The position numbers were made by a program, and so were the translations under genes. From IMG/VR virus record IMGVR_UViG_3300045988_077516, positions 1 through 37,399 of that record: 37,399 nucleotides of DNA. One strand, 5' to 3'. Positions 817-27,787 of the stretch are shown here, in pieces (within the stretch, counting starts at the first letter, position 1; each line of letters starts with the position of its first letter). This DNA comes from a virus. The notes below the pieces were generated by a model, which made no database searches, was not told the DNA's origin, and saw only the letters and a program-made list of their open reading frames with translations.

Positions 817-1104
817 ATGAAAGCAGCAGAAAAAAATGTAAAACGTAAAGCACATTATGATCATCTGGAGCAGAGTGTTGATGCTGATGCAGCCAGAAGA
901 TTCCATGAACCAGCCGCAGTAAAGAGCAAGATGACAAAACTGGCATCAGTCAAAATTATAGAACATTACATAGAACACACCGATGATGAAGACGGTGAAA
1001 TCCTGGAAATAATAGCAAGGAAATGCATGAGGGGAGGCGATGCCGGTGGAGATGACAGAAAACGACAAGAAAAAGGAGTTCCTGCGAAGATACCGGGAAT
1101 GTGA
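817..1104 (+). CDS. Hypothetical protein (95 aa)
   Basis: ORF in the operon. Its 3' end overlaps the next gene by 65 nt, so the true end and coding status are uncertain. Confidence 0.4.
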   Translation: MKAAEKNVKRKAHYDHLEQSVDADAARRFHEPAAVKSKMTKLASVKIIEHYIEHTDDEDGEILEIIARKCMRGGDAGGDDRKRQEKGVPAKIPGM

Positions 1105-1462
1105 ACGCAGGGAGCAGGAGATCCTGGAAGAGATCCAGAGGCTCCGGATGGATCAGATGTTTCCATCCATGGTCAATGACGGGATGCCGAAAGGCAGCCA
1201 GCAGTCCGATCTGTCGGATTACATGGTACTGTTGGATGAGCAGATTGATCGGCTGAAACAGGAACGCCTGGAAAAAGCAAGGACACGTGAACAGATCGAC
1301 CTGGCAATCAGACGTATGAAGAACCCGGATGAGCAGAGGGTGCTGCGACTGCGGTATCTGTGGGGGCTGAATTGGAAAGAAATCGGAGAAAAAATGGGGT
1401 ATAACGAAAGACAGCCCCAGAGAATCCATGGGAGTGCGTTGAATAATTTCAAGATGTCGTAG
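1040..1462 (+). CDS. DUF1492/ArpU-like late transcription regulator (sigma-70 region-4-type HTH)
   Basis: C-terminal EQRVLRLRYLWGLNWKEIGEKMGYNERQPQRIHGSALNNF resembles sigma-70 region 4. GGGGAGG lies upstream of the ATG. The position just before the packaging genes is typical. Confidence 0.7.
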   Translation: MPVEMTENDKKKEFLRRYRECERREQEILEEIQRLRMDQMFPSMVNDGMPKGSQQSDLSDYMVLLDEQIDRLKQERLEKARTREQIDLAIRRMKNPDEQRVLRLRYLWGLNWKEIGEKMGYNERQPQRIHGSALNNFKMS

Positions 1463-1588
1463 AATGTCGCACTCCACCTGTGATATAGTGTAATCAGTTC
1501 AGTTTGGGAATGATGCTGACATGATTGGTTCTTTTCATTTACCTCCGTATATTGTATATCTGCCGGGTCTCAACAGCCCGGCAGCATT

Positions 1589-1662
1589 GGAACATAGCTC
1601 AGTCGGTGAGAGCAGCTGGCTTATACCAGTGTTGTCGAAGGTTCGAGTCCTTCTGTTCCGAT
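1589..1662 (+). tRNA. tRNA-like gene with an irregular anticodon arm (anticodon TAT/Ile if a 7-nt loop is forced; otherwise undetermined)
   Basis: Acceptor TGGAACA/TGTTCCG, D arm GCTC-AGTCGGTGA-GAGC and T arm GAAGG-TTCGAGT-CCTTC are canonical. The only good anticodon helix, GCTGG/CCAGT, leaves a 6-nt loop CTTATA. No encoded CCA. Confidence 0.7.
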
Positions 1663-1719
1663 TTCCCTGATGGGGACATATAAGAATCCTTTCTCAAAAG
1701 AATAATACTTTTCCGCAGG

Positions 1720-1750
1720 AAGACATCTGGCAGTGCCGGGTGTCTTTTTG
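1720..1750 (+). terminator. Rho-independent terminator downstream of the tRNA
   Basis: Hairpin AAGACATCTGGC-AGT-GCCGGGTGTCTT followed by TTTTG. Confidence 0.7.
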
Positions 1751-1791
1751 TGTACTCAAAAATAACAACAGAACAAAGGAAGGTGAGGTGA

Positions 1792-2253
1792 TTGGCAAAC
1801 AATGAAAACTTAGTGCCTTTTGACAAACGAAGCGAGAGCGAAGTGAGAGAATACGCCAGAAAAGGCGGCCAGGCATCTGGAAGGACAAGGCGGCGAAAAG
1901 CAGAGTTCCGGAAGACGTTGAACGCCCTGCTGACAGCGGAAATTGACAACCCGGAGTGGAAACCGTTCCTGGAGTCGATCGGCCTGGACTGTACACTTGA
2001 ATCTGCGATGCTGGCGGCTCAGATCCGGGAAGCGATGCAGGGCAACACCAAAGCCGCTTACTTCGTGGCTCAGTATGCAGGGCAGAACGGGGCGGCAGAG
2101 GAGGACATCCGCAACAAGGAAGCAGATACAGAGCTTAAGAAAGCGAGGAAACGGGCAGTCACAGGTGAGAATGAGACGGACGAGGCACTTGAGAAGCTGG
2201 ATGCGATACTGAAGGAGGTGCGTGACAATGCAGTTGAGCAAAATGCAGAATGA
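1792..2253 (+). CDS. terS: Terminase small subunit
   Basis: TTG start with AAGGAAGGTGAGGTG upstream. N-terminal NLVPFDKRSESEVREYARKGGQASGRTRRRK is typical of Firmicutes phage small terminases. It sits directly before terL. Confidence 0.75.
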   Translation: MANNENLVPFDKRSESEVREYARKGGQASGRTRRRKAEFRKTLNALLTAEIDNPEWKPFLESIGLDCTLESAMLAAQIREAMQGNTKAAYFVAQYAGQNGAAEEDIRNKEADTELKKARKRAVTGENETDEALEKLDAILKEVRDNAVEQNAE

Positions 2254-3553
2254 ATACATCGTGAACGCAACGCACCGCTGGAACATTAAATCCGGGGCAG
2301 TACGTTCCGGGAAGTCTTTTGTAGATACGGCTTTTGTCATTCCCTTCCGGATCCGTGAGAGGGCGGGAAAACCGGGGCTGAATGTGATCCTTGGCGTGTC
2401 GAAGGAATCCATCGAGCGAAACGTGCTCCAGCCGATGCGTGAGATCTATACCGATAAGCTGGTCGGAAACATCAACAACCGCAACATTGCAAGGGTATGC
2501 GGTGAGGATGTCTACTGCCTGGGGGCGGAGAAGGTCAGCCAGGTTGCCAAGATCCAGGGTGCAAGCATCAAATACTGCTACGGGGATGAGATCGCTAAGT
2601 GGAACAAAGAAGTGTTCCAGATGCTCAAATCACGACTCGATAAGCCTTGCAGCTGCTTTGACGGGTCATGCAACCCGGAGCATCCTACCCACTGGCTGAA
2701 AGAGTTCCTGGACACACCGGAGCTTGATATCTACCTGCAAAAGTACACGATCTTTGACAACCCGTACCTGGATCCGGCTTTTGTGGAACAGCTCTGCAGG
2801 GAATACGATGGCACGATCTACTACGACCGCCTGATCTTAGGACTCTGGAAGCGTGCAGACGGTTCGATCTACAAGAAGTTTGCAGACCACCCGGAAGCGT
2901 TCCGGTGCGGGATCGTAGAACATCCCGGAAGCAGCCCGGACTGCAAGGAGTTTCGGAAGCAGGACCTTGTATCCATCGAGATCGGTCTGGACTTCGGCGG
3001 CAACAAGTCCGGCCATGCGTTCGTGGCAAGAGGGTACACGGACAATTACCGGGATGTGATCGCCCTGAAATCCCGCCGGGTCATGGCAAAAGAGAAAGAC
3101 GACCCGATCGACAGCAACCGTCTGGATCAACTGTTCTGTGATTTCGTGCAGGATGTGATCGACCAGTATGCGGATGTTGTAAGACACTGGGATACCATCG
3201 AATACTGCAACGTAGAAACGGTCTTCTGGGACAATGCAGAAACCGTGCTGGGTAATTCCATCCGGAACGCGGTCGAGAAGCGTTTCCCGTGGATCAGCGT
3301 GAAACCGGCAAAGAAGAAACGTGTAAATGACCGTATCAATGCGACCGTCAGGCTTATGGGAGCCGGGCGGTTTTTTCTTACAGACGACTGCGATAGCCTG
3401 GAAACAGCATTTTCGGATGCGGTCTGGAACAGGGAGAAACAGGATGATGAGCGGCTGGACGATGGCAGCACGGACATAGACAGCCTGGATGCGTTCGAGT
3501 ACACCATAGAACGCGACCTGAAGGAACTCATCCAGGAGGTGGAGGATGTTTGA
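2228..3553 (+). CDS. terL: Terminase large subunit (PBSX-type)
   Basis: Walker A-like SGAVRSGKS near the N-terminus, about 440 aa. ATG 2228 lies 9 nt after AGGAGG; the alternative GTG at 2222 lies only 3 nt after it. Confidence 0.9.
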   Translation: MQLSKMQNEYIVNATHRWNIKSGAVRSGKSFVDTAFVIPFRIRERAGKPGLNVILGVSKESIERNVLQPMREIYTDKLVGNINNRNIARVCGEDVYCLGAEKVSQVAKIQGASIKYCYGDEIAKWNKEVFQMLKSRLDKPCSCFDGSCNPEHPTHWLKEFLDTPELDIYLQKYTIFDNPYLDPAFVEQLCREYDGTIYYDRLILGLWKRADGSIYKKFADHPEAFRCGIVEHPGSSPDCKEFRKQDLVSIEIGLDFGGNKSGHAFVARGYTDNYRDVIALKSRRVMAKEKDDPIDSNRLDQLFCDFVQDVIDQYADVVRHWDTIEYCNVETVFWDNAETVLGNSIRNAVEKRFPWISVKPAKKKRVNDRINATVRLMGAGRFFLTDDCDSLETAFSDAVWNREKQDDERLDDGSTDIDSLDAFEYTIERDLKELIQEVEDV

Positions 3554-4895
3554 TTTTGCAAAACGGATATGGAGAGAGGTGAGGAGATTGTTTGATTATA
3601 CGACACTGAAAACAGCCCTGGGGCGTGAACTGACGCTGTCACAGTCCATGGTCGAAGCCCTGGAAAGCTGGGGCGGCATGATGGACGGGAAGGCACCGTG
3701 GTGCGTGGACCCGGTGGTGTCGCTTCGGATTGAGTCCGGTATCTGCCGCGAATTTGCGGATGCGGTGCTGGTTGAGATGGAAAGCTCCATCCTGAACAAT
3801 GACCGGCTGGATGCGGCTTACCAGAGGGGGCTGTTAGACCTGAATGAGAACCTGCAGGACGGTCTTGGCTTCGGCTCTTTTATCCTGCGGCCGCTGGGGG
3901 CAGACAGGACCGAGTTCGTCACAGCTGATAAGTTCGTGCCGGTCCGCTTCGATGATTCCGGGAAACCGGTCGATGTTGCTTTTCTGACCGTTAATCGGGT
4001 GGGGGAATATGACTATTACACGAAAATGGAGCGTCATTACTTCACGAACGGAAACCTGACGATCGAAAACAAGTGCTACCATTCCCTTGACCGGAATCAC
4101 CTTGGTACACCATGCAGCCTGGATGCGGTGGACGAATGGGCAGACATCAACCAGGGTCCGGTGACCTATCCAGGAATGGACCGCATGGACTTCGGGTACT
4201 ACCGCAACCCACTCAAAAACCGGATTGACGGTTCATTCTGTGGGGTGTCAATCTTTGACGCTGCTGCCGACCTGATCCGCAAGGCAGACATCCAGGCGGC
4301 AAGGCTCGACTGGGAGTATGAATCCGGCGAGCGTGCCGTGCATGTGGATGAACGTGCACTGAAACGCGGAAGCAGGGGCACACGGATGGCACAGCTGAAC
4401 AAACGCCTGTACCGTGGCCTGAACATCGAGGACGGCAAAGACAAGGAACTGCTGCGGGAATATTCCCCGGCGATGCGGGACGCTTCCTACATTGCCGGCC
4501 TTGAGAAGTATTACCGGAACATTGAGTTCACAGTCGGGCTTGCCTACGGCGACCTGTCAGATGTTCAGGAGGTATCCAAGACAGCGACTGAGGTACGCGT
4601 CTCGAAAGCACGGAAATACAACCGTGTGACAGCGATCCAGGAGAACCTGAAAGAATGCCTGGAGGATTATGCCGCTGCCCTGGCGTTCTATAACAGCATG
4701 TACCATTCCGGTTATGAATTTGCCTGTAAGTTCAACGATTCCATCCTGACGGATGAAGATTCCGAAAGGCAGCAGGATCGCCAGGATGTTTCTATGGGTG
4801 TGATGTCTGCGGTTGAATACCGCATGAAGTGGTACAACGAGGATGAGGCGACAGCCAAGAAGAACCTGCCAGTGCAGAATAACGTGATGGAGTGA
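3546..4895 (+). CDS. Portal protein (SPP1 gp6-like)
   Basis: 449 aa, directly after terL with an overlapping start. GGAGGTGGAGG ribosome-binding site. Confidence 0.85.
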   Translation: MFDFAKRIWREVRRLFDYTTLKTALGRELTLSQSMVEALESWGGMMDGKAPWCVDPVVSLRIESGICREFADAVLVEMESSILNNDRLDAAYQRGLLDLNENLQDGLGFGSFILRPLGADRTEFVTADKFVPVRFDDSGKPVDVAFLTVNRVGEYDYYTKMERHYFTNGNLTIENKCYHSLDRNHLGTPCSLDAVDEWADINQGPVTYPGMDRMDFGYYRNPLKNRIDGSFCGVSIFDAAADLIRKADIQAARLDWEYESGERAVHVDERALKRGSRGTRMAQLNKRLYRGLNIEDGKDKELLREYSPAMRDASYIAGLEKYYRNIEFTVGLAYGDLSDVQEVSKTATEVRVSKARKYNRVTAIQENLKECLEDYAAALAFYNSMYHSGYEFACKFNDSILTDEDSERQQDRQDVSMGVMSAVEYRMKWYNEDEATAKKNLPVQNNVME

Positions 4896-4899
4896 TGCC

Positions 4900-6705
4900 A
4901 TGGCGAGCAAGAAGGAGAAACCGGATAAAGAACGGATGGGGCTGGTTGCGGAGAGGATCTGGCGGGATGCAGAGCTGCGTATCATGGAGGATGTTGTCCG
5001 CAGGATAAAAAAAGCCGGCGAGATCACATCAACGGCAGACTACCAGATCAACCGCCTGATCGAGATGGGCAGATCCCGGGAGGAAGTCGAGCGAATCATA
5101 AAAGAATCATTGGATGCAACCTGGCCGGAAATGTTTGAAATGTATGACAAGGTGGCTGAATGGGAATATGTCCGCAACCAGGAAGTCTATGAGCAGATCA
5201 CGGACGAGTTTATCGCACCTGAGGATAACGAGTGGCTCATACAGCTGACAGAAGCCATAAGGAAACAGACACAGGACACCATGGTGAACTTGTCCCAGAG
5301 CTGCGGATTTTCGGTCATGATGGGCGGCAGGCGTGTATTCACACCATTTGCCGAGTACTACCAGAAATACGTGGATACGGCCATACAGGACGTTGTGACA
5401 GGTGCCACGGATTACAACTCTGCCGTCCGCAAAGTCGTCACCCAGATGACGAACAGCGGGCTTCGGGTGGTGGATTACGCTTCCGGCCACACCAACCGGG
5501 CAGACGTAGCAGCCCGCAGAGCCGTCCTTACAGGCGTGAACCAGATCACGGCACAGATCAGTGAGCACAACGCAGAAAAACTCGGCACAGACCAGTTTGA
5601 AGTGTCCTGGCACCCATGTGCGAGGCCGGATCACCAGACATGGCAGGGCAAGGTGTTCAGCAAGGAAGAACTGCGGACGGTTTGCGGATATGGAAGCGTC
5701 ACAGGGTTGTGCGGTGCCAACTGTAGACATTCCTTTGACCCATTTATCCCTGGCATTTCCGAACGTCTCTATCCGGATGACTGGCTGGAAGAGCAGAACA
5801 AAAGGGAAGCCCAGACAAAAGAATGGAACGGTAAGCAGCTCAATGCCTACGAACAGACCCAGCAGCAGAGGAAGATGGAGACCGCCATGCGTGCCCAGCG
5901 TCAGAAGATTCGGCTGTTAGAAGAGGCAGGAGCTGACAAGGACGACATCATGCTGGAAAAAGCAAAGTACCAGGGACAGCTGAACGAGTATAAGCAGTTT
6001 AGTAAGAAAATGGGACTTGTGGAACAGCGTGAGAGAATCTATCAGGATGGACTGGGAAGAATTGCTCCCGTAAAAACAACTTACAAATTTCAAAATAAAG
6101 CAGAGACATCACAGATGTATCGCCCGATACAGCGGAGCCAAGAGAGTATAGACGTAAAAATCAAAGAGGACTTTGAAGTGAAAACGCGAAAAGTACTATC
6201 TTATTCGGGCGATGTATATATTTCTGACAATGCAACGATAAAACCAAGAGCGTTGCATCAAATTAACAAAAATACAGAAGAAGCAATAAAACAATGGGGG
6301 ATTCCATCAGACAGAAAACCTAAAATTGTGATTGTATCACCGGATGAGATGCCAACAGCGTATGGAAAATATGACGCAATTCAAAATACTGTTTTTTATA
6401 TTCCACAAATTGCAGATAAAAAGATTGTAGAAAATCAAGGTGATATCGAATATCATGAAATGTGGCATATGAAACAAGCTGAAAATTTCAGAAGTCAGAA
6501 GGGAAAAATTACTAAAGAAAACCATAGAGAGTACATACAAAGTGCTTGTAAGGATGCGAAGAAGGTAATTGACAAGGCTGGTATAAGCAAGTACAATGTG
6601 AATAAAGTAAGCGAATATGCAGAAAGGATGTATCGCTTAGGTCGCTATGATGAAGTTGAGGCAGAGTATATGACTACATATAGGAGAAAAAGACATGGTA
6701 ATTAG
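4900..6705 (+). CDS. Minor head protein (MuF / SPP1 gp7 / minor-capsid-2 type) fused to an AT-rich C-terminal domain with an HExxH motif
   Basis: The central region AARRAVLTGVNQ...WHPCARPDHQTWQGKVFS...CGANCRHSFDPF is the MuF-like core. The last ~215 aa contain YHEMWHMKQ. GC falls sharply from about nt 6060. Confidence 0.85.
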   Translation: MASKKEKPDKERMGLVAERIWRDAELRIMEDVVRRIKKAGEITSTADYQINRLIEMGRSREEVERIIKESLDATWPEMFEMYDKVAEWEYVRNQEVYEQITDEFIAPEDNEWLIQLTEAIRKQTQDTMVNLSQSCGFSVMMGGRRVFTPFAEYYQKYVDTAIQDVVTGATDYNSAVRKVVTQMTNSGLRVVDYASGHTNRADVAARRAVLTGVNQITAQISEHNAEKLGTDQFEVSWHPCARPDHQTWQGKVFSKEELRTVCGYGSVTGLCGANCRHSFDPFIPGISERLYPDDWLEEQNKREAQTKEWNGKQLNAYEQTQQQRKMETAMRAQRQKIRLLEEAGADKDDIMLEKAKYQGQLNEYKQFSKKMGLVEQRERIYQDGLGRIAPVKTTYKFQNKAETSQMYRPIQRSQESIDVKIKEDFEVKTRKVLSYSGDVYISDNATIKPRALHQINKNTEEAIKQWGIPSDRKPKIVIVSPDEMPTAYGKYDAIQNTVFYIPQIADKKIVENQGDIEYHEMWHMKQAENFRSQKGKITKENHREYIQSACKDAKKVIDKAGISKYNVNKVSEYAERMYRLGRYDEVEAEYMTTYRRKRHGN

Positions 6706-6853
6706 GGAATATCCAGAAGAAATAAGAAAGCTGATGGAAGTGTATGAACCATATGCTAATCGTATCTATGATGGGAAGCTTGAGAATGCTCCAACAAAAG
6801 TGATAGAAGCATTTGAAAAAGTAAAAAAGTGGGCATGGGAACAAGGACAGTAG
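6695..6853 (+). CDS. Small ORF (52 aa) overlapping the MuF stop; candidate cognate partner or immunity protein
   Basis: Hand translation gives MVIREYPEEIRKLMEVYEPYANRIYDGKLENAPTKVIEAFEKVKKWAWEQGQ. AGGAG lies 8 nt upstream of the ATG and a terminator follows directly. It is below the size cut-off of the supplied track. Confidence 0.5.
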   Translation: MVIREYPEEIRKLMEVYEPYANRIYDGKLENAPTKVIEAFEKVKKWAWEQGQ

Positions 6854-7713
6854 GTACCACCAGTCGAAAGACAGGTGGTATTTTTGTACCCATTTTTAAG
6901 GAGGTGAGAAACATAAAAAGCAAAACTTACGAAGAATTTGTCGAAAAATTCAAACCGAAGAAAACGACAGACGACTGCTATACACCGTCAGAAATATACG
7001 AAGCCATAAAGGACTGGGTTTGCAAACGTTACAATATCGATCCTGAGAACGTGATCCGCCCATTCTGGCCGGGCGGCGATTACGAAAAAGACGAGTACCC
7101 ACCGGGATGTGTGGTGGTGGACAACCCGCCTTTTTCCATCCTGAAAAATATATGTGAATTTTATCTGGAACGGGGCATCCCGTTCTTTTTGTTTGCCCCG
7201 TCACTCACGGCATTATCCGGCAAGACTACCTGGGACAGAATGAACCATATTGTGTGCGACTGCACGATCGAATACGAAAACGGTGCAACTGTGAAGACAT
7301 CGTTTATTACCAGTTTCGAACCGGAAACGGTAGCAGAGACATCACCGGAGCTGACAAAGCTGGTGAATGATACAACAGAAAAGCTGAGGCAGGAAAAGAC
7401 ACGGAAATTGTCAAAGTATGATTATCCGGATCATATCGTTACCGCTGCCATGATGCAGAAAATGGCACGCTACGGCGTGCATTTCAGGGTAAGGCGTGAA
7501 GAATGCCAGCATGTGCGAAGCCTGGACGCCCAAAGGGCCATGAAAAAAACGATTTACGGGGCAGGGCTTCTGCTGTCAGACCAGGCGGCAGCCAGGAAGC
7601 AGAACGCAGAAAAGCAGGCAGCAGAAAAGCAGGCAGAGGATACCATCTGTTATGAACTTTCAGAACGCGAGAGGGAACTGGTGGAAGAATTAAATAAATC
7701 AACACTGTATTAA
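6829..7713 (+). CDS. Orphan N6-adenine DNA methyltransferase-like protein (true start probably near 6904-6913)
   Basis: VVVDNPPFS is the (D/N)PP(F/Y) catalytic motif IV, and DDCYTPSEIY lies near the N-terminus. A strong AAGGAGG at 6898-6904 implies a start at GTG 6904 or ATA 6913. The ATG at 6829 has no ribosome-binding site and would span the terminator. Confidence 0.7.
   Translation: MGMGTRTVGTTSRKTGGIFVPIFKEVRNIKSKTYEEFVEKFKPKKTTDDCYTPSEIYEAIKDWVCKRYNIDPENVIRPFWPGGDYEKDEYPPGCVVVDNPPFSILKNICEFYLERGIPFFLFAPSLTALSGKTTWDRMNHIVCDCTIEYENGATVKTSFITSFEPETVAETSPELTKLVNDTTEKLRQEKTRKLSKYDYPDHIVTAAMMQKMARYGVHFRVRREECQHVRSLDAQRAMKKTIYGAGLLLSDQAAARKQNAEKQAAEKQAEDTICYELSERERELVEELNKSTLY
6855..6885 (+). 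terminator. Rho-independent terminator-like hairpin after the 52-aa ORF
   Basis: TACCACC - 12-nt loop - GGTGGTA followed by TTTTTG. Confidence 0.6.
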
Positions 7714-7731
7714 GAAAGCGAGGATGAAAAC

Positions 7732-8016
7732 ATGATTATTACAGGAATGGCACATTTTGAAAGCGTTTGTAAAAAGAAACTGGTTGATTGGTACAACGAG
7801 AATGGTTTTGCCGATACACCGGTAACGCCGCCAATTGACTTATCTAACGTATTCGTAGTATGGAGCTGCAAGACTTTACAGAATTACAAATGTCTTGTAT
7901 CTACTACGGTGAGCGGTGATGGTATCTATGCAGAGTATACATACAACGGTGATAAGCAGGAACTTTACGAAGATGTGTACAAGAAAGTGACAAATACATG
8001 CTATACGGAGGAATAA
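7732..8016 (+). CDS. Hypothetical protein (94 aa)
   Basis: ORF with GAGGA upstream, in an AT-rich region. I tentatively recall a small phage family with a VVWSCKTLQNYK...YNGDK pattern. Confidence 0.6.
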   Translation: MIITGMAHFESVCKKKLVDWYNENGFADTPVTPPIDLSNVFVVWSCKTLQNYKCLVSTTVSGDGIYAEYTYNGDKQELYEDVYKKVTNTCYTEE

Positions 8017-8019
8017 GTG

Positions 8020-8406
8020 ATGAAAAGAAAAATAGCAGCATTGCTGGTACTGATAGCAGTGAGTTGTTTTACAATGACTGGATGCACAGAAGCGGATCAG
8101 GTAAGTACAAATATCTCCAAGGAAGCTGATAACTTCAATGTAACGCGAAAACTTACCGTTCTGAATGCACGAACAGATACTATTTTGCTTGAACTGACCG
8201 GAACGTTTGCACTGAAAAATAATTCAGACAACGAACTGGAAGTAATTATTGAAACAGCAGAAGGGAAATATCAGAAAGATTATGTATATCTTAATAATTA
8301 CACCATGTATGTTGTTGAAGATATCTCAGGGGCTGAGGTAGATAAGTATCATTACGAGATTAACTTTCTTCCAGAGTTCGGACTTAAGGTTACACACGAT
8401 GACTGA
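8020..8406 (+). CDS. Secreted lipoprotein
   Basis: Signal peptide MKRKIAALLVLIAVSCFTMTG followed by Cys (lipobox-like MTGC). GGAGG lies 8 nt upstream of ATG 8020. Confidence 0.75.
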   Translation: MKRKIAALLVLIAVSCFTMTGCTEADQVSTNISKEADNFNVTRKLTVLNARTDTILLELTGTFALKNNSDNELEVIIETAEGKYQKDYVYLNNYTMYVVEDISGAEVDKYHYEINFLPEFGLKVTHDD

Positions 8407-8608: not shown

Positions 8609-8765
8609 TCCAGATATCTCCCTTTGAGGCATGGGGTTAGGTGTCTTATTTTTATGCCCTGCCATAAGGCGTAAAACTGGGCGATTACCCGGCCGGAGGT
8701 CTACCCGGCTATATCCCACACCGCTGAAAGAGCGGTCAATAAAACATTTCAGGAGGAACGAAGCA

Positions 8766-9329
8766 ATGAAAAATATCTATGAGATTCTGAAAGATTACGG
8801 TCTGGAGATCCCGGAAGAGAAAAAGGCAGACTTTGACAAGTCATGGAAGGAAAATTACCGCACCAAAAACGAGTACGACAAGGCAGTGAACCAGCGTGAC
8901 GAGTACAAGACTTCACTGGATACGGTAAACGAGAAGCTCAAGGAGTTTGACGGCGTGGATGTCGCAGACCTCAAAGGGCAGATCACAAAGCTCCAGGACG
9001 ATCTGAAAACGCAGAAAGAGACGTATGACGCAAAGGAAGCGGAACGTCTGTTTACGGATTCCGTCAAATCTGCAATCAAGGAAGCAGGAGGAAGAAACGC
9101 AAAGGCGGTCATGGCACTGCTTGACATGGATGCCCTGAGGGAATCCAAAGACCAGAGTGCAGACATCAAGAAAGCACTGGATGCTGCAAAAGAGTCTGAC
9201 GCTTATCTGTTTGGAACAGATGAACCTTTCAAGAATCCGGTCGGACCGTCCGGCGGAAACGGCGGGACGGACTCGGCGCTTGCTGCCATGAGGGCAGCGG
9301 CAGGATTACCACCTGCGGAAAGCAAATAG
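8766..9329 (+). CDS. Head scaffolding protein (GP20-like)
   Basis: AGGAGGA lies 7 nt upstream of ATG 8766. The protein is charged and coiled-coil-like (MKNIYEILKDYGLEIPEEKKADFDK...) and sits directly before the capsid gene. Confidence 0.75.
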   Translation: MKNIYEILKDYGLEIPEEKKADFDKSWKENYRTKNEYDKAVNQRDEYKTSLDTVNEKLKEFDGVDVADLKGQITKLQDDLKTQKETYDAKEAERLFTDSVKSAIKEAGGRNAKAVMALLDMDALRESKDQSADIKKALDAAKESDAYLFGTDEPFKNPVGPSGGNGGTDSALAAMRAAAGLPPAESK

Positions 9330-22838: not shown

Positions 22839-23717
22839 ATGAGCTACAAAATCACAAACGCCATATCATCATCCAGAGTCCCGGCATGGGGAAATCAGAA
22901 AAAGTACATTGGAGTGCATTATCTGGGCGTGGTCGGCCAGGCACATGACCTGTCGTCCGATGGGTGTGGTGCACATTTCTACATCTACTGGGATGGCACC
23001 ATCTACCAGCGTTGCAGTCTGGATGCCGTGCCGTGGGCGGTTGGCACGGCTGGTTATTACAAACAGAAGCACCCGGAAGCCAACAACTATAACACGATCA
23101 GCATCGAGATGTGCTGCAAGTGTGACGGCAATGCCGCAAGTGCGAATGATCCAACATGGTATTTCACGCAGGAAACTCAGGAGGCGTGTGTTTGGCTGGT
23201 CAAGCAGCTGATGGGGCAGCTTGGAATCGCTGCAGACCATGTCCTTCGGCATTATGATATTGTCAACAAGGTATGCCCGGCACCGTATGTACACAATAAC
23301 AACTATAAAACCAGCTGGAGATGGGACGAGTTCAAGAAAAAAATTGCCGGATCAGGCGACATTCTCCCAGCCACCAGCAAACCATGGTACCGTGTCCGCA
23401 AGACCTGGAAGAATGAAAAAAGCCAGCTCGGGGCGTTCCATACACTGAAGAAGGCAAAGCAGTGTGCAAATCAGCACGCCGGTTATCATGTTTACAACGA
23501 TGCCGGTAAAAAGGTATATACATCAGCCAAACTCCCATACAATGTGCGGCCGAAAACCGCAAATGTTCCAATCAGGACAGGAGCGGCCAAAACATACAGT
23601 GCTGCCAGAACGTTTTTGCAGCCAGGTAAGTACGTGATCACCGAGGAAAAGAACGGATTCGGCAAGCTGAAAAGCGGTGCAGGATGGGTATACTTGAAGA
23701 AAGTGGAGAGGGTATAA
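22839..23717 (+). CDS. Endolysin: N-acetylmuramoyl-L-alanine amidase (Amidase_2/PGRP) with C-terminal wall-binding domains (SPOR-like plus SH3b-like)
   Basis: GVHYLG...HFYIYWDGTIYQ...NTISIEMC...LRHYDIVNKVCPAP, then WYRVRKTWKNEKSQLGAFHTLKKAK, then a GKYVITEEKNGFGKLKSGAGWVYL tail. Confidence 0.9.
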   Translation: MSYKITNAISSSRVPAWGNQKKYIGVHYLGVVGQAHDLSSDGCGAHFYIYWDGTIYQRCSLDAVPWAVGTAGYYKQKHPEANNYNTISIEMCCKCDGNAASANDPTWYFTQETQEACVWLVKQLMGQLGIAADHVLRHYDIVNKVCPAPYVHNNNYKTSWRWDEFKKKIAGSGDILPATSKPWYRVRKTWKNEKSQLGAFHTLKKAKQCANQHAGYHVYNDAGKKVYTSAKLPYNVRPKTANVPIRTGAAKTYSAARTFLQPGKYVITEEKNGFGKLKSGAGWVYLKKVERV

Positions 23718-23904: not shown

Positions 23905-23932
23905 GCTCGATTTTATCGGGCTTTTTTCTTTT
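23905..23932. terminator. Bidirectional terminator-like hairpin spanning the integrase stop codon
   Basis: GCTCGAT-TTT-ATCGGGC is followed by TTTTTTCTTTT on the + strand and by TTTT on the - strand. Confidence 0.5.
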
Positions 23933-25142
23933 CGTGTTGCATTTCGTGTTGCATAAATGCTAAAAATTCTATTTTGCTCTGTTCAGAATCCTCTTTTTCG
24001 TACAGAAGAAGCCAGGCTTTATATTTCTTCTGGTCAATATCTACAGGATCATTTTCGAGTAAATTTTCAAAGTATCTGTCGATTGTATCATCTGCTTTGA
24101 TACGACCATCTGAAAAGGTATGTGTATAGATTTGTTTCATAACCTTGTCTGTTTTCCAGCCGCCACGTTCCATGGCATATTTATCCGGGATGTTCAGCAT
24201 ATGCATGATAGATGCATTTTCATGTCGCAGATCGTGAAATGTCATGTGCGGGAGATGATTCTTTTTCAGAAGCATTGACCACTTCATATAGATAGCATGA
24301 CCGCTTTGAGCGATGAGATAATCGTCTGGATCACCTTTTGGTATCAATTCCATTATGTATGGAGGGATGCGGTGTTTTCGCAGACGTTTGGCTGCTTTTC
24401 CAGATTCTTTCACAGAAGCCTCGCCATTAATGTCTACCACCACCCGGTCAATTCGCAGATAGCCGTCTTCAATGTCTTTATATTTGATTCCTCGAATTTC
24501 ACTCATGGAAAAACTCAACCACATGGCAAGTAAGCACGGGAGTTCAATATCTGTTCCTTTTATGATCTCCAGAATTGTTTGTGGTGGGATCAATTCTTTC
24601 ACCTTTTGGGGCACAGTTGGAAGCTTTACGCAATAAGATGCGTCTGGCATACAGGAATGGATGGCAGCGGAAATAAAGCCGTAGGTATTTTTTACTGTTT
24701 TTGGAGATATAGGCTTCGGGTTTTTCTTGTTTCTTTTTGACAGACGCTTGCAGTCGCGATTAACAGCATCTTGCAGATCATCAGATGTTATATCACGCAG
24801 TCGGGTGTCAAAAAGTGGTTTGTAAGAATCGTATTGATCTTTGCGGTAGCCCTGCATCGTAGTGCCGGATAATGCACTGTCAGATTTCTCAATATAACGC
24901 TCGATCGCTTCCGATAGTGTAATATTTATAGTGCTTTGCTTATCCTTACGTTTAGTGAGAAGAAACTGGTTAGCTGCCAATTCTGCTTCGTGCTTCCCTC
25001 TTTTGGTCGGATCATCGGAAGTGAAAGATTCATAGATCCGCTTATTTTTCCAGATTCCGGATTTTTCATCGAATATCTTTTCGGTATGGCTATATGCAAG
25101 ACACCGCCATGAACCTGACGGTAATTTTTTTGCTGTTGGCAT
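23913..25142 (-). CDS. int: Tyrosine integrase
   Basis: MPTAKKLPSGSWRC N-terminus, with AGGAGG 7 nt upstream of ATG 25142. The C-terminal catalytic region has FHDLRH and ...KQIYTH. The upstream extension to 25217 lacks a ribosome-binding site. Confidence 0.9.
   Translation of the reverse strand: MPTAKKLPSGSWRCLAYSHTEKIFDEKSGIWKNKRIYESFTSDDPTKRGKHEAELAANQFLLTKRKDKQSTINITLSEAIERYIEKSDSALSGTTMQGYRKDQYDSYKPLFDTRLRDITSDDLQDAVNRDCKRLSKRNKKNPKPISPKTVKNTYGFISAAIHSCMPDASYCVKLPTVPQKVKELIPPQTILEIIKGTDIELPCLLAMWLSFSMSEIRGIKYKDIEDGYLRIDRVVVDINGEASVKESGKAAKRLRKHRIPPYIMELIPKGDPDDYLIAQSGHAIYMKWSMLLKKNHLPHMTFHDLRHENASIMHMLNIPDKYAMERGGWKTDKVMKQIYTHTFSDGRIKADDTIDRYFENLLENDPVDIDQKKYKAWLLLYEKEDSEQSKIEFLAFMQHEMQHEKKKAR
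23931..23955 (+). repeat. Right arm-type repeat: two tandem copies of TTCGTGTTGCAT, embedded in the 3' end of the integrase CDS
   Basis: Identical 25-mer. On the - strand it encodes MQHEMQHE at the integrase C-terminus. Confidence 0.6.
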
Positions 25143-25317
25143 AATATCATCCTCCTGTTCGTAAAATGGGTATAAAAATACACCTATACAGGTGCTGGAG
25201 GATTGTGGTATAATCATCTTGCTTAAGGGTGATTGTACTGGTCCTCAGACCTGTATAGATTCACTGATCCGCTTCGGTGCTGGTAACACTGGGGCGGATT
25301 TTTTTGTTTAATTGTTT

Positions 25318-27269: not shown

Positions 27270-27389
27270 ATGGACTACAAAAACGAGATTATAAAACTGA
27301 TTAACAAACTGAATGCTTCTGATGAAACCTTTTTGAAACAGGTTTACATAATCATTAAGAAGCACTTTGACAGAAGAGAGGGACGTTAG
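27270..27389 (+). CDS. Small ORF (39 aa) convergent with the repressor gene
   Basis: GGGAGG lies 8 nt upstream of the ATG. Translation: MDYKNEIIKLINKLNASDETFLKQVYIIIKKHFDRREGR. The longer track ORF would begin inside the -35 box. Confidence 0.5.
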   Translation: MDYKNEIIKLINKLNASDETFLKQVYIIIKKHFDRREGR

Positions 27390-27404
27390 TCCCTTTTCTT
27401 TTTT
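27379..27404 (+). terminator. Rho-independent terminator at the tail-to-tail junction with the repressor gene
   Basis: AGGGAC-GTTA-GTCCCT followed by TTTCTTTTTTG. Confidence 0.65.
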
Positions 27405-27787
27405 GCCAAATTGTCAGCCAGTTTCTCAGCCGCTTCCATAAGTACCTTCTGTGATGCGGGAGATAGTTCGCTGTACGTTTTGACTATCTCCAAAATTATA
27501 CTGTAAAAAGCGTTGTCTTTTCCTTCTTCTAACAGATCTGAAACAATACCAGCTATTTCCTCATCTTCTGAGAGTTGCTGATACATCTCTCCATCACCTG
27601 TTTTCAGCCATTCTTCACTGACATTGAACTCACGGCATATCGCCCGACTCATTTGTTCCGTGAGATTTCTCTTTTCTTTTTCAATATTGGAGATTGCCAC
27701 TTTGGTCACTCCGAGCTTATTTCCGAATTGTTCCATTGTCATTTCTAAGCTTTTTCGGATTTCTTTGACACGCTCACCTTGCGTCAT
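27386..27787 (-). CDS. CI-like repressor (XRE HTH, no S24 peptidase domain)
   Basis: ERVKEIRKSLEMTMEQFGNKLGVTKVAISNIEKEKRNLT is an HTH. GGGAGG ribosome-binding site. It is divergent from the early operon. Confidence 0.85.
   Translation of the reverse strand: MTQGERVKEIRKSLEMTMEQFGNKLGVTKVAISNIEKEKRNLTEQMSRAICREFNVSEEWLKTGDGEMYQQLSEDEEIAGIVSDLLEEGKDNAFYSIILEIVKTYSELSPASQKVLMEAAEKLADNLAKKKRD

Follow-up and report, generated by a model that had tools for sequence, protein, structure and literature searches.

The DNA analysed here, hereafter the window, comprises positions 1 to 37,399 of the IMG/VR virus record IMGVR_UViG_3300045988_077516 (37,399 nucleotides (nt)) and is the genome of a phage of the temperate siphovirus type. 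The segment 6057-6885, which begins inside the gene of the minor head protein, is in our judgement probably a toxin/immunity-type cassette lodged in a variable C-terminal slot, that is, a MuF polymorphic toxin composed of a zincin-like effector domain and a protein of 52 amino acids (aa) that would be its inhibitor or immunity protein. MuF polymorphic toxins of temperate phages have been described before (Zhang et al. 2012, PMC3482391; Jamet et al. 2017, PMC5576092). The class is therefore already known, and what is new is a zincin-like toxin family not covered by existing models, an equally unmodelled partner family and evidence for a dedicated internal promoter.

The open reading frame (ORF) of the head protein starts at 4900, directly 3' of the end of the portal gene at 4895, within the packaging/head module. 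Residues 18-367 of the product match Pfam PF06152 Phage_min_cap2 (E 1.5e-101), and the PHROG match of the ORF is the minor head protein phrog_581. PF06152 was named 'MuF2' and placed in the MuF superfamily by Jamet et al. 2017 (PMC5576092). An earlier reading of the window, made from its letters alone (below, the sequence-only reading), had called this product a MuF minor head protein; affiliation to the superfamily stands, a match to PF04233 Phage_Mu_F itself does not, and the label is acceptable because PF06152 counts as MuF2, though the best model is not PF04233. The regional GC content changes from 53.1% in 4900-6056 to 35.9% in 6057-6848, and GC at third codon positions is 64.9% in the upstream part and 29.3% in the C-terminal part. 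The fall from about 60% to about 25% that the sequence-only reading had described is exact for the two lines concerned (60% at 5401-5460 and 25% at 6361-6420).

The place of the change, put by that reading near 6060, is a homology breakpoint at 6056/6057 in comparison with L106, a phage 97.5% identical in nt to positions 903-6056 of the window. By blastn the similarity of L106 is absent over 6057-6848 and is back at 6849-7735; the replaced interval thus matches the coordinates that the sequence-only reading had given to an AT-rich module with its small ORF. L107 likewise has no homology over this interval, and the homology of L126, L108 and L110 to the window restarts at 6875. The interval between the breakpoints 6057 and 6848 takes in the zincin-like domain together with the 52-aa ORF, and the alignments show a cassette that has evidently been exchanged by recombination as one unit. 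Two comparative checks had been set by the sequence-only reading, namely whether the C-terminal region, with the small ORF, varies as a cassette rather than being conserved with the MuF core, and whether a zincin-like fold is predicted. For the first, the L106 breakpoints at 6056/6057 and 6848/6849 flank both elements, and, among 79 IMG/VR loci retrieved as encoding relatives of the N-terminal 380 aa of the head protein, only four (99-100% identical in these 380 aa) share the window's tail; for the second, the answer is yes in part, as described below. Both checks are favourable and support the overall interpretation.

Clustering of the tails of the 79 relatives gave at least 11 types, among them the established polymorphic-toxin domains Toxin-deaminase and Ntox50. 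The N-terminal parts encoded by L106, L107 and L126 are 97-98% identical to that of the window, their tails differ and the window's small ORF is missing. In phages with 95-98% identity over portal, MuF core, scaffold and capsid, the place of the domain is taken by DUF6883, a deaminase or Ntox50 (Table 1). The fact that near-isogenic phages replace the domain with non-protease domains implies that it is not required for head assembly. Slot behaviour of this kind is the defining trait of a polymorphic toxin locus. In all three alternative cassettes inspected the tail is followed by a small ORF of its own (55 aa in L106, 83 aa in L126, and 128 aa in L110), and in L106 and L110 a terminator-like hairpin also lies 3' of it; a search of these two sister cassettes for internal promoters found none above chance. 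Most sister tails have in common a pre-toxin linker of ~65 aa (…MKYNDPEKW). The window, whose swap point is upstream of this linker, lacks it because its junction lies directly after YQDGLG.

Two further tails in the same slot contain HExxH motifs of their own. The tail of L140 (HEMGH…REFFAECF) is weakly ATLF/M90-like, below threshold, and that of L157 (HEMAH…ECLAEAF) has no Pfam match; with these, at least three unrelated-looking zincin-type modules occur in this MuF2 lineage.

The C-terminal domain belongs to a large family. A word-indexed search with the C-terminal 221 aa gave 56 homolog clusters, and a profile search of a representative set of 1.84 billion proteins gave 451 proteins (clusters) at E <= 1e-3, 324 of them at E <= 1e-10. 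The matches are nearly always C-terminal in proteins of 450-620 aa. Among 68 full-length members the N-termini are PF04233 Phage_Mu_F (30), PF06152 (17) and PF25310 VG15 (10), and no Pfam model covers the C-terminal part in any of the 68. The window's C-terminal domain has no sequence match in Pfam, NCBIfam or the PDB. The HExxH motif that the sequence-only reading had noticed in the C-terminal extension, with GKYDAIQNTVFYIP ahead of it, is present as HEMWH, the sole HExxH of the 601-aa protein. Its H, E and H do not vary among 30 family domains of maximal diversity, which makes a chance match untenable. Among the 68 full-length members no variation occurs at E520, H523 or E585, and at least 90% conserve H519 and E589; the ligand set of HExxH plus Glu is kept across members with ~30% identity. 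The family falls into two subgroups, HEMWHxKQA…DEVEAEY and HELxHWxDA…DEVYTEYR. A weak similarity to YjgF/RidA (Ribonuc_L-PSP, PDB 2dyy; E 8e-4 to 0.1), which recurred in the searches and maps to window 6499-6690 (domain aa ~127-190), was rejected as spurious, being confined to the last helices.

The AlphaFold2 (AF2) model of the domain, built on a 26-sequence alignment, is confident (predicted local distance difference test score (pLDDT) 88.5, predicted TM-score (pTM) 0.81). It runs from a disordered linker through a beta-hairpin, a helix, three strands, the HExxH helix and two insert helices to the DEVEAEY helix, with HEMWH on model helix 135-154 and DEVEAEY on model helix 203-219. In the published description of the MPTase zincin core (PMC5512222), a sheet of three strands is combined with an N-terminal helix, the HExxH helix and a helix that carries the Glu; the predicted topology of the model is that of this core. 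When the model was compared with the PDB by Foldseek, the top of the list consisted nearly entirely of zincins (anthrax lethal factor (LF), selecase, jannalysin, M1 peptidases (IRAP/ERAP/LTA4H), M61, YbeY, Wss1, LasB and ADAM), with TM-scores over the query (TMq) of at most 0.31 and E >= 0.12. The Foldseek probability was 0.8-0.9 for selecase and ranged over 0.7-0.9 for anthrax LF, selecase and jannalysin. Against BFVD a family member was found at E 1e-14, followed by weak matches to SprT-, IrrE- and M48-like proteins and to peptidases of polyvalent proteins. The minigluzincins (selecase and jannalysin) and anthrax lethal factor-type proteins are the best structural matches and have in common with the domain the HExxH helix and a downstream ligand helix; however, TM-scores are only 0.25-0.3 over the query, at E >= 0.12 and 12-19% identity, and homology is not established. 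The domain has no match to Pfam ATLF (PF07737), and 1pwu_B, the top Foldseek entry, is at E 0.12 and TMq 0.28.

A lenient Pfam scan of 30 members gave DUF6782 in three and Tox-MPTase3 in two (best E 2.1e-5), as well as YgjP, M90 and M78. One of ten members scanned against Tox-MPTase3 (PF15639) reaches 25.1 bits, the gathering cutoff being 25. The published signature of Tox-MPTase3, K…HExxH…[FY]DE (PMC3482391), recurs in the window family. With Tox-MPTase3 and other small zincin-like toxin domains (Tox-MPTase1-5, Wss1-like) the family shares a small alpha+beta zincin core, and with Tox-MPTase3 also the C-terminal toxin position and a K ... HExxH ... [FY][DE] pattern; it differs in having one more beta-hairpin at the N-terminus and, ahead of the Glu helix, an insert of two helices. 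The original description of Tox-MPTase3 concerned Alphaproteobacteria and Bacteroidetes, with delivery by the type II secretion system or the Photorhabdus virulence cassette (PVC) and no known immunity; for Tox-MPTase1-5 as a whole no immunity protein is listed (PMC3482391). The Ct_MAD domain of Jamet et al. comes from Proteobacterial COG2369 tails, whereas the window family is found in Clostridia. The domain thus represents an unclassified zincin-like family, possibly distant kin of Tox-MPTase3.

The 52-aa ORF was reported by the sequence-only reading to start 8 nt after an AGGAG and to overlap the stop of the head protein; both hold, the overlap being 11 nt. Purine-rich sites similar to AGGAG lie upstream of its homologs as well. 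These form 47 clusters, almost all of 47-57 aa, with identity down to 58%; Pro7, Ile10, Pro33, Ala39, Lys44, Trp48 and the C-terminal Gln are invariant, and the C-terminus is a conserved WAWEQGQ. AF2 models the protein as a two-helix hairpin (helices 8-23 and 34-49, pLDDT 80), for which a Foldseek search was uninformative. In 102 loci, retrieved via the small ORF or the domain from GTDB genomes, IMG/VR and metagenome contigs, a small-ORF homolog stands directly after the domain in 98. The four exceptions are one marginal domain match, one truncated locus and two loci with a divergent, sub-threshold homolog of 53 aa (L063 was inspected). A small-ORF homolog is thus present in every complete locus examined, across three N-terminal scaffolds. 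The pair of domain and small ORF stands jointly behind three MuF-type N-termini in unrelated phage backbones, including MuF1 genes in phages with other terminases, portals and capsids.

A programmed frameshift that would fuse the domain to the small ORF was considered and rejected: the small ORF reads in the +1 frame, the extent to which the two genes overlap or lie apart differs between loci, and one fused protein only was found. The fact that the gap or overlap between the two genes varies favours translational coupling over a conserved frameshift. The fused protein, P0026 (324 aa, from a 1.1-kb Logan contig), is the only natural case in which the zincin-like domain and the small ORF are joined in frame; the fusion is either genuine, though rare, or the product of an assembly indel. 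Resemblance of the N-terminal half of the small protein to the strand region 'IVIVSPDEM..YGKYDA' of the domain was likewise discarded as not significant (hhalign P 0.098).

Orphan C-terminal fragments of the domain, each with a distinct variant of the small ORF, occur in L008 and L072. In L008 (1169-1770) a full domain and small ORF are followed by a 78-aa fragment that starts with MWHMKQ and then by a second, different small ORF; in L072 (4331-5329) a 59-aa domain fragment is accompanied by two further small ORFs. Toxin tips that have been displaced but keep their immunity genes are highly characteristic of polymorphic toxin/immunity loci, and these arrays argue for cognate specificity. Since the L008 fragment starts at the M of HEMWH and the HEMWHMKQA stretch is nearly codon-invariant, this stretch may be an internal recombination hotspot.

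The small ORF may also be transcribed on its own. A promoter scan found a sigma-70/sigma-A-type site within the coding sequence of the domain, ~100 nt upstream of the small ORF, that matches the consensus at 11 of 12 positions. In a codon alignment of 26 non-redundant family loci (<90% identical at the DNA level) the codon that precedes the Asp of the -35 element ('xTT GAC') is ATT, CTT or GTT in 26/26 despite variation between I, L and V. The Asp itself is encoded by GAC in 22/22, while the other three conserved Asp columns mostly use GAT (14:8, 18:6 and 23:3). The Asn codon of the -10 element is AAT in 24/25, giving (T/G)A(T/C)AAT. These promoter codons are the only non-Met/Trp codons of the domain with a third-position conservation of at least 0.9, a pattern of nucleotide-level selection on the -35/-10 pair at a fixed spacing of 17 nt. 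The hairpin-plus-T-run terminator that the sequence-only reading had seen after the small ORF folds at -22.4 kcal/mol (z = -6.0 against shuffles) in the stem 6855-6880 with its T-run; a simple terminator scan missed this hairpin, probably because of an internal stem mismatch. A hairpin with T-run directly follows the small ORF in ~20 of the 26 non-redundant loci, often with identical sequence (TACCACCAGTC…GGTGGTATTTTT) and with compensatory changes in the stem. Promoter, ribosome-binding site, 52-aa ORF and terminator together would make a moron-like unit that could be expressed from the prophage, and the small ORF looks, in its sequence features, like an autonomous transcription unit.

In nuclease-colicin operons the immunity gene is served by a constitutive promoter of its own that lies within the structural gene of the colicin. 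The layout found here is alike in that a promoter embedded in the toxin coding sequence would drive the downstream immunity gene, with a terminator after it. It differs in that the operon here is a phage late head-gene operon and there an SOS-controlled plasmid operon, and in that the promoter here is predicted from sequence conservation alone. By this analogy we infer that the small ORF may be expressed in the manner of a colicin immunity gene.

We propose that the head protein, by analogy with SPP1 gp7, would be packaged near the portal in few copies, exit the capsid with the DNA and deliver a putative Zn-metallopeptidase effector to the cytoplasm of the infected cell. The small protein would bind and block the peptidase. 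It would be made with the late operon and also alone in lysogens, and, since the prophage could transcribe its gene independently, lysogens and virus-producing cells would be protected. Variants of domain and small protein would form cognate pairs, which would explain the orphan arrays of fragments and small ORFs. A more tentative extension, to which we give somewhat less than an even chance, is that the small gene acts as an autonomous prophage-expressed immunity unit for lysogen protection in a kin-discrimination or superinfection system, with the hairpin and junction as landing site. If true, lysogens would have constitutive protection against a protease that related phages inject from their capsids, the MuF cassettes of gut Lachnospiraceae would be a phage-borne kin-discrimination or superinfection system, and the conserved hairpin and junction would be a recombination landing site for cassette exchange.

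Several points weigh against a toxin/immunity cassette. None of the peptidase models in Pfam, NCBIfam or PADLOC-independent libraries matches the window protein. By Foldseek, no solved zincin of the PDB is matched significantly (best E 0.12, at TM 0.28); of the zincin fold that the sequence-only reading expected, the confident AF2 topology stands and a significant structural match does not. A PDB profile search returned only unrelated proteins at E >= 0.02, and neither the window domain nor three consensus sequences of the family match Tox-MPTase3. Moreover, peptidase effectors need not be lethal 'toxins', and physical linkage alone would also fit a chaperone or regulator.

Another reading gives the same parts a different role: a virion-delivered effector, not an antibacterial toxin, that cleaves a specific protein of the host or of a resident prophage (such as a defence protein or a repressor) and so aids infection or biases the choice between lysis and lysogeny, the small protein being an inhibitor or chaperone that silences it in the producer cell until packaging. 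Architecture, delivery logic and tight linkage of the partner would be the same as for the toxin/immunity cassette, such roles of peptidases have been proposed by Jamet et al. 2017 (PMC5576092) and Iyer et al. 2017 (PMC5512222), and among the viral Foldseek matches are peptidases of the IrrE/ImmA-like and SprT-like kinds, whose substrates are specific regulators or DNA-protein adducts. However, the orphan arrays and the diversified variants are typical of toxin/immunity arms races, the slot is otherwise filled by nuclease and deaminase toxins, and an independently transcribed partner fits the protection of lysogens better than a packaging chaperone. We consider this role unlikely, though it deserves to be kept in mind. 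A peptidase that acts in cis, in autoprocessing or release of the MuF protein or in maturation of the head, with the small ORF regulating that step, is improbable. A weak PHROG match to phrog_193 'head maturation protease' (E 0.016) and the lack of a recognisable prohead protease gene of its own between those for portal and capsid would suit it, and MPTase domains of polyvalent and PVC proteins are often releasing peptidases (PMC5512222, PMC3482391). Yet the domain stands last in the protein and has nothing beyond it to release, this reading would leave both the linked small-ORF family and the orphan arrays unexplained, and the near-isogenic phages (95-98%) that carry DUF6883, deaminase or Ntox50 instead of the domain led us to reject the head-maturation protease. 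The reading that takes the HExxH domain for a catalytically inactive module with a structural or binding role, and the small ORF for an unrelated hitchhiking moron gene, might draw on the non-significant similarity to solved zincins, but is very hard to believe when the HExxH and Glu ligand set is invariant across members at ~30% identity and the small ORF occurs in every complete locus on three N-terminal scaffolds.

As a toxin/immunity cassette, the locus resembles the known MuF polymorphic toxins in its MuF-superfamily N-terminus right after the portal, its recombining variable C-terminus, its small downstream ORF (<150 aa) and its carrier, a temperate Firmicutes gut phage. In contrast to them, its C-terminal domain matches no Pfam or NCBIfam toxin model and its 52-aa partner lies outside the described immunity families. 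A metallopeptidase domain was present in ~20% of the MuF toxins catalogued in 2017 (PMC5576092). Only Apk2 and Bxa have been studied experimentally; the characterised types are a (p)ppApp-synthetase and an ADP-ribosyltransferase only, with none of the peptidase type, and both the biological role of MuF toxins and the need of a late head gene for an immunity partner await explanation (PMC11699363). Human-gut prophages abound in MuF polymorphic toxins, and the locus offers a compact, well-delimited test case: a zincin-like effector family of ~450 clusters, a 52-aa partner family and natural near-isogenic phages that differ only in the cassette. The sequence evidence for transcription of the partner apart from the late operon predicts that immunity is expressed in lysogens.

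Table 1. Features of the window, with the domains found in place of its C-terminal module in related phages
Feature	Coordinates	Strand	Remarks
Large terminase	2222-3553		
Portal	3546-4895		phrog_533
Minor head protein ORF, 601 aa	4900..6705	+	directly after portal; stop TAG 6703-6705
MuF-type core (Phage_min_cap2, 'MuF2') and helical linker; constant capsid-targeting part	4900..6056	+	
Exchanged cassette: AT-rich C-terminal module (216 aa) and 52-aa ORF	6057..6848	+	blastn vs L106/L107
Low-confidence linker before domain	aa 386-410		
Folded zincin-like domain, ~190 aa (aa ~411-601)	6130..6702	+	AF2
HEMWH (H519, E520, H523; aa 519-523), predicted zinc ligands and catalytic base	6454-6468	+	
Predicted sigma-70/sigma-A-type promoter within domain coding sequence	6569..6597	+	TTGACA (6569-6574), 17-nt spacer, TACAAT (6592-6597)
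DEVEAEY on last helix; E585 or E589 candidate third zinc ligand	6649..6669	+	
Shine-Dalgarno AGGAG of small ORF	6682-6686	+	sequence; 8 nt before ATG
52-aa ORF, candidate cognate immunity/inhibitor protein	6695..6853	+	
Intrinsic-terminator-like hairpin	6855..6885	+	stem 6855-6880, T-run 6881-6885; also start of conserved right junction
Scaffold	8631-9329		
Amidase endolysin	22839-23717		
Tyrosine integrase	23913-25217	minus	
Helix-turn-helix (HTH) regulator	27386-27787	minus	
Alternative tail DUF6883 (PF21814)			Pfam E 4e-16
Alternative tail Toxin-deaminase PF14424			Pfam E 1.6e-17
Alternative tail Ntox50 PF15542			Pfam E 1.2e-15

The integrase and the HTH regulator mark the phage as temperate, and it is a siphovirus of apparent Lachnospiraceae type. 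The hosts of its relatives are human-gut Clostridia (Agathobaculum, Lachnospira eligens, Lachnoanaerobaculum, Faecalibacterium, Hominisplanchenecus, Blautia and Dorea), and Lachnospiraceae genomes hold relatives of the window phage. Among the deposited phage genomes of INPHARED, megablast found no match and tblastn one weak match.

The right junction is common to different cassettes (window 6849-6907, L106 5899-5957 and L110 ~6250-6290) and consists of the 3' arm or the T-run of the terminator followed by TTTTTGTACCCATTTTTAAGGAGG. This conserved junction may be a site of homologous recombination for cassette exchange. The gene at 6829-7713, conserved across relatives, matches phrog_21498 (E 1.8e-90), which has no assigned function. 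Where it begins is ambiguous: two of the possible starts, GTG 6829 and ATG 6835, fall within the small ORF and thus upstream of the terminator hairpin, a third, GTG 6904, forms part of the Shine-Dalgarno sequence AAGGAGGTG, and an in-frame ATA at 6913 stands 7 nt after that sequence.

A second mosaic cassette of low GC content (38%) occupies window 7736-8398, with genes at 7732-8016 and 8017-8406; the homology of L106 and L107 is missing over 7736-8398 and restarts at 8399. Its products belong to DUF6275 and Phage_VG64, the latter having a lipoprotein-like signal (MMKRKIAALLVLIAVSCFTMTGC). In the unrelated phage L001 this DUF6275/Phage_VG64 gene pair is likewise present, downstream of the MuF-zincin cassette.

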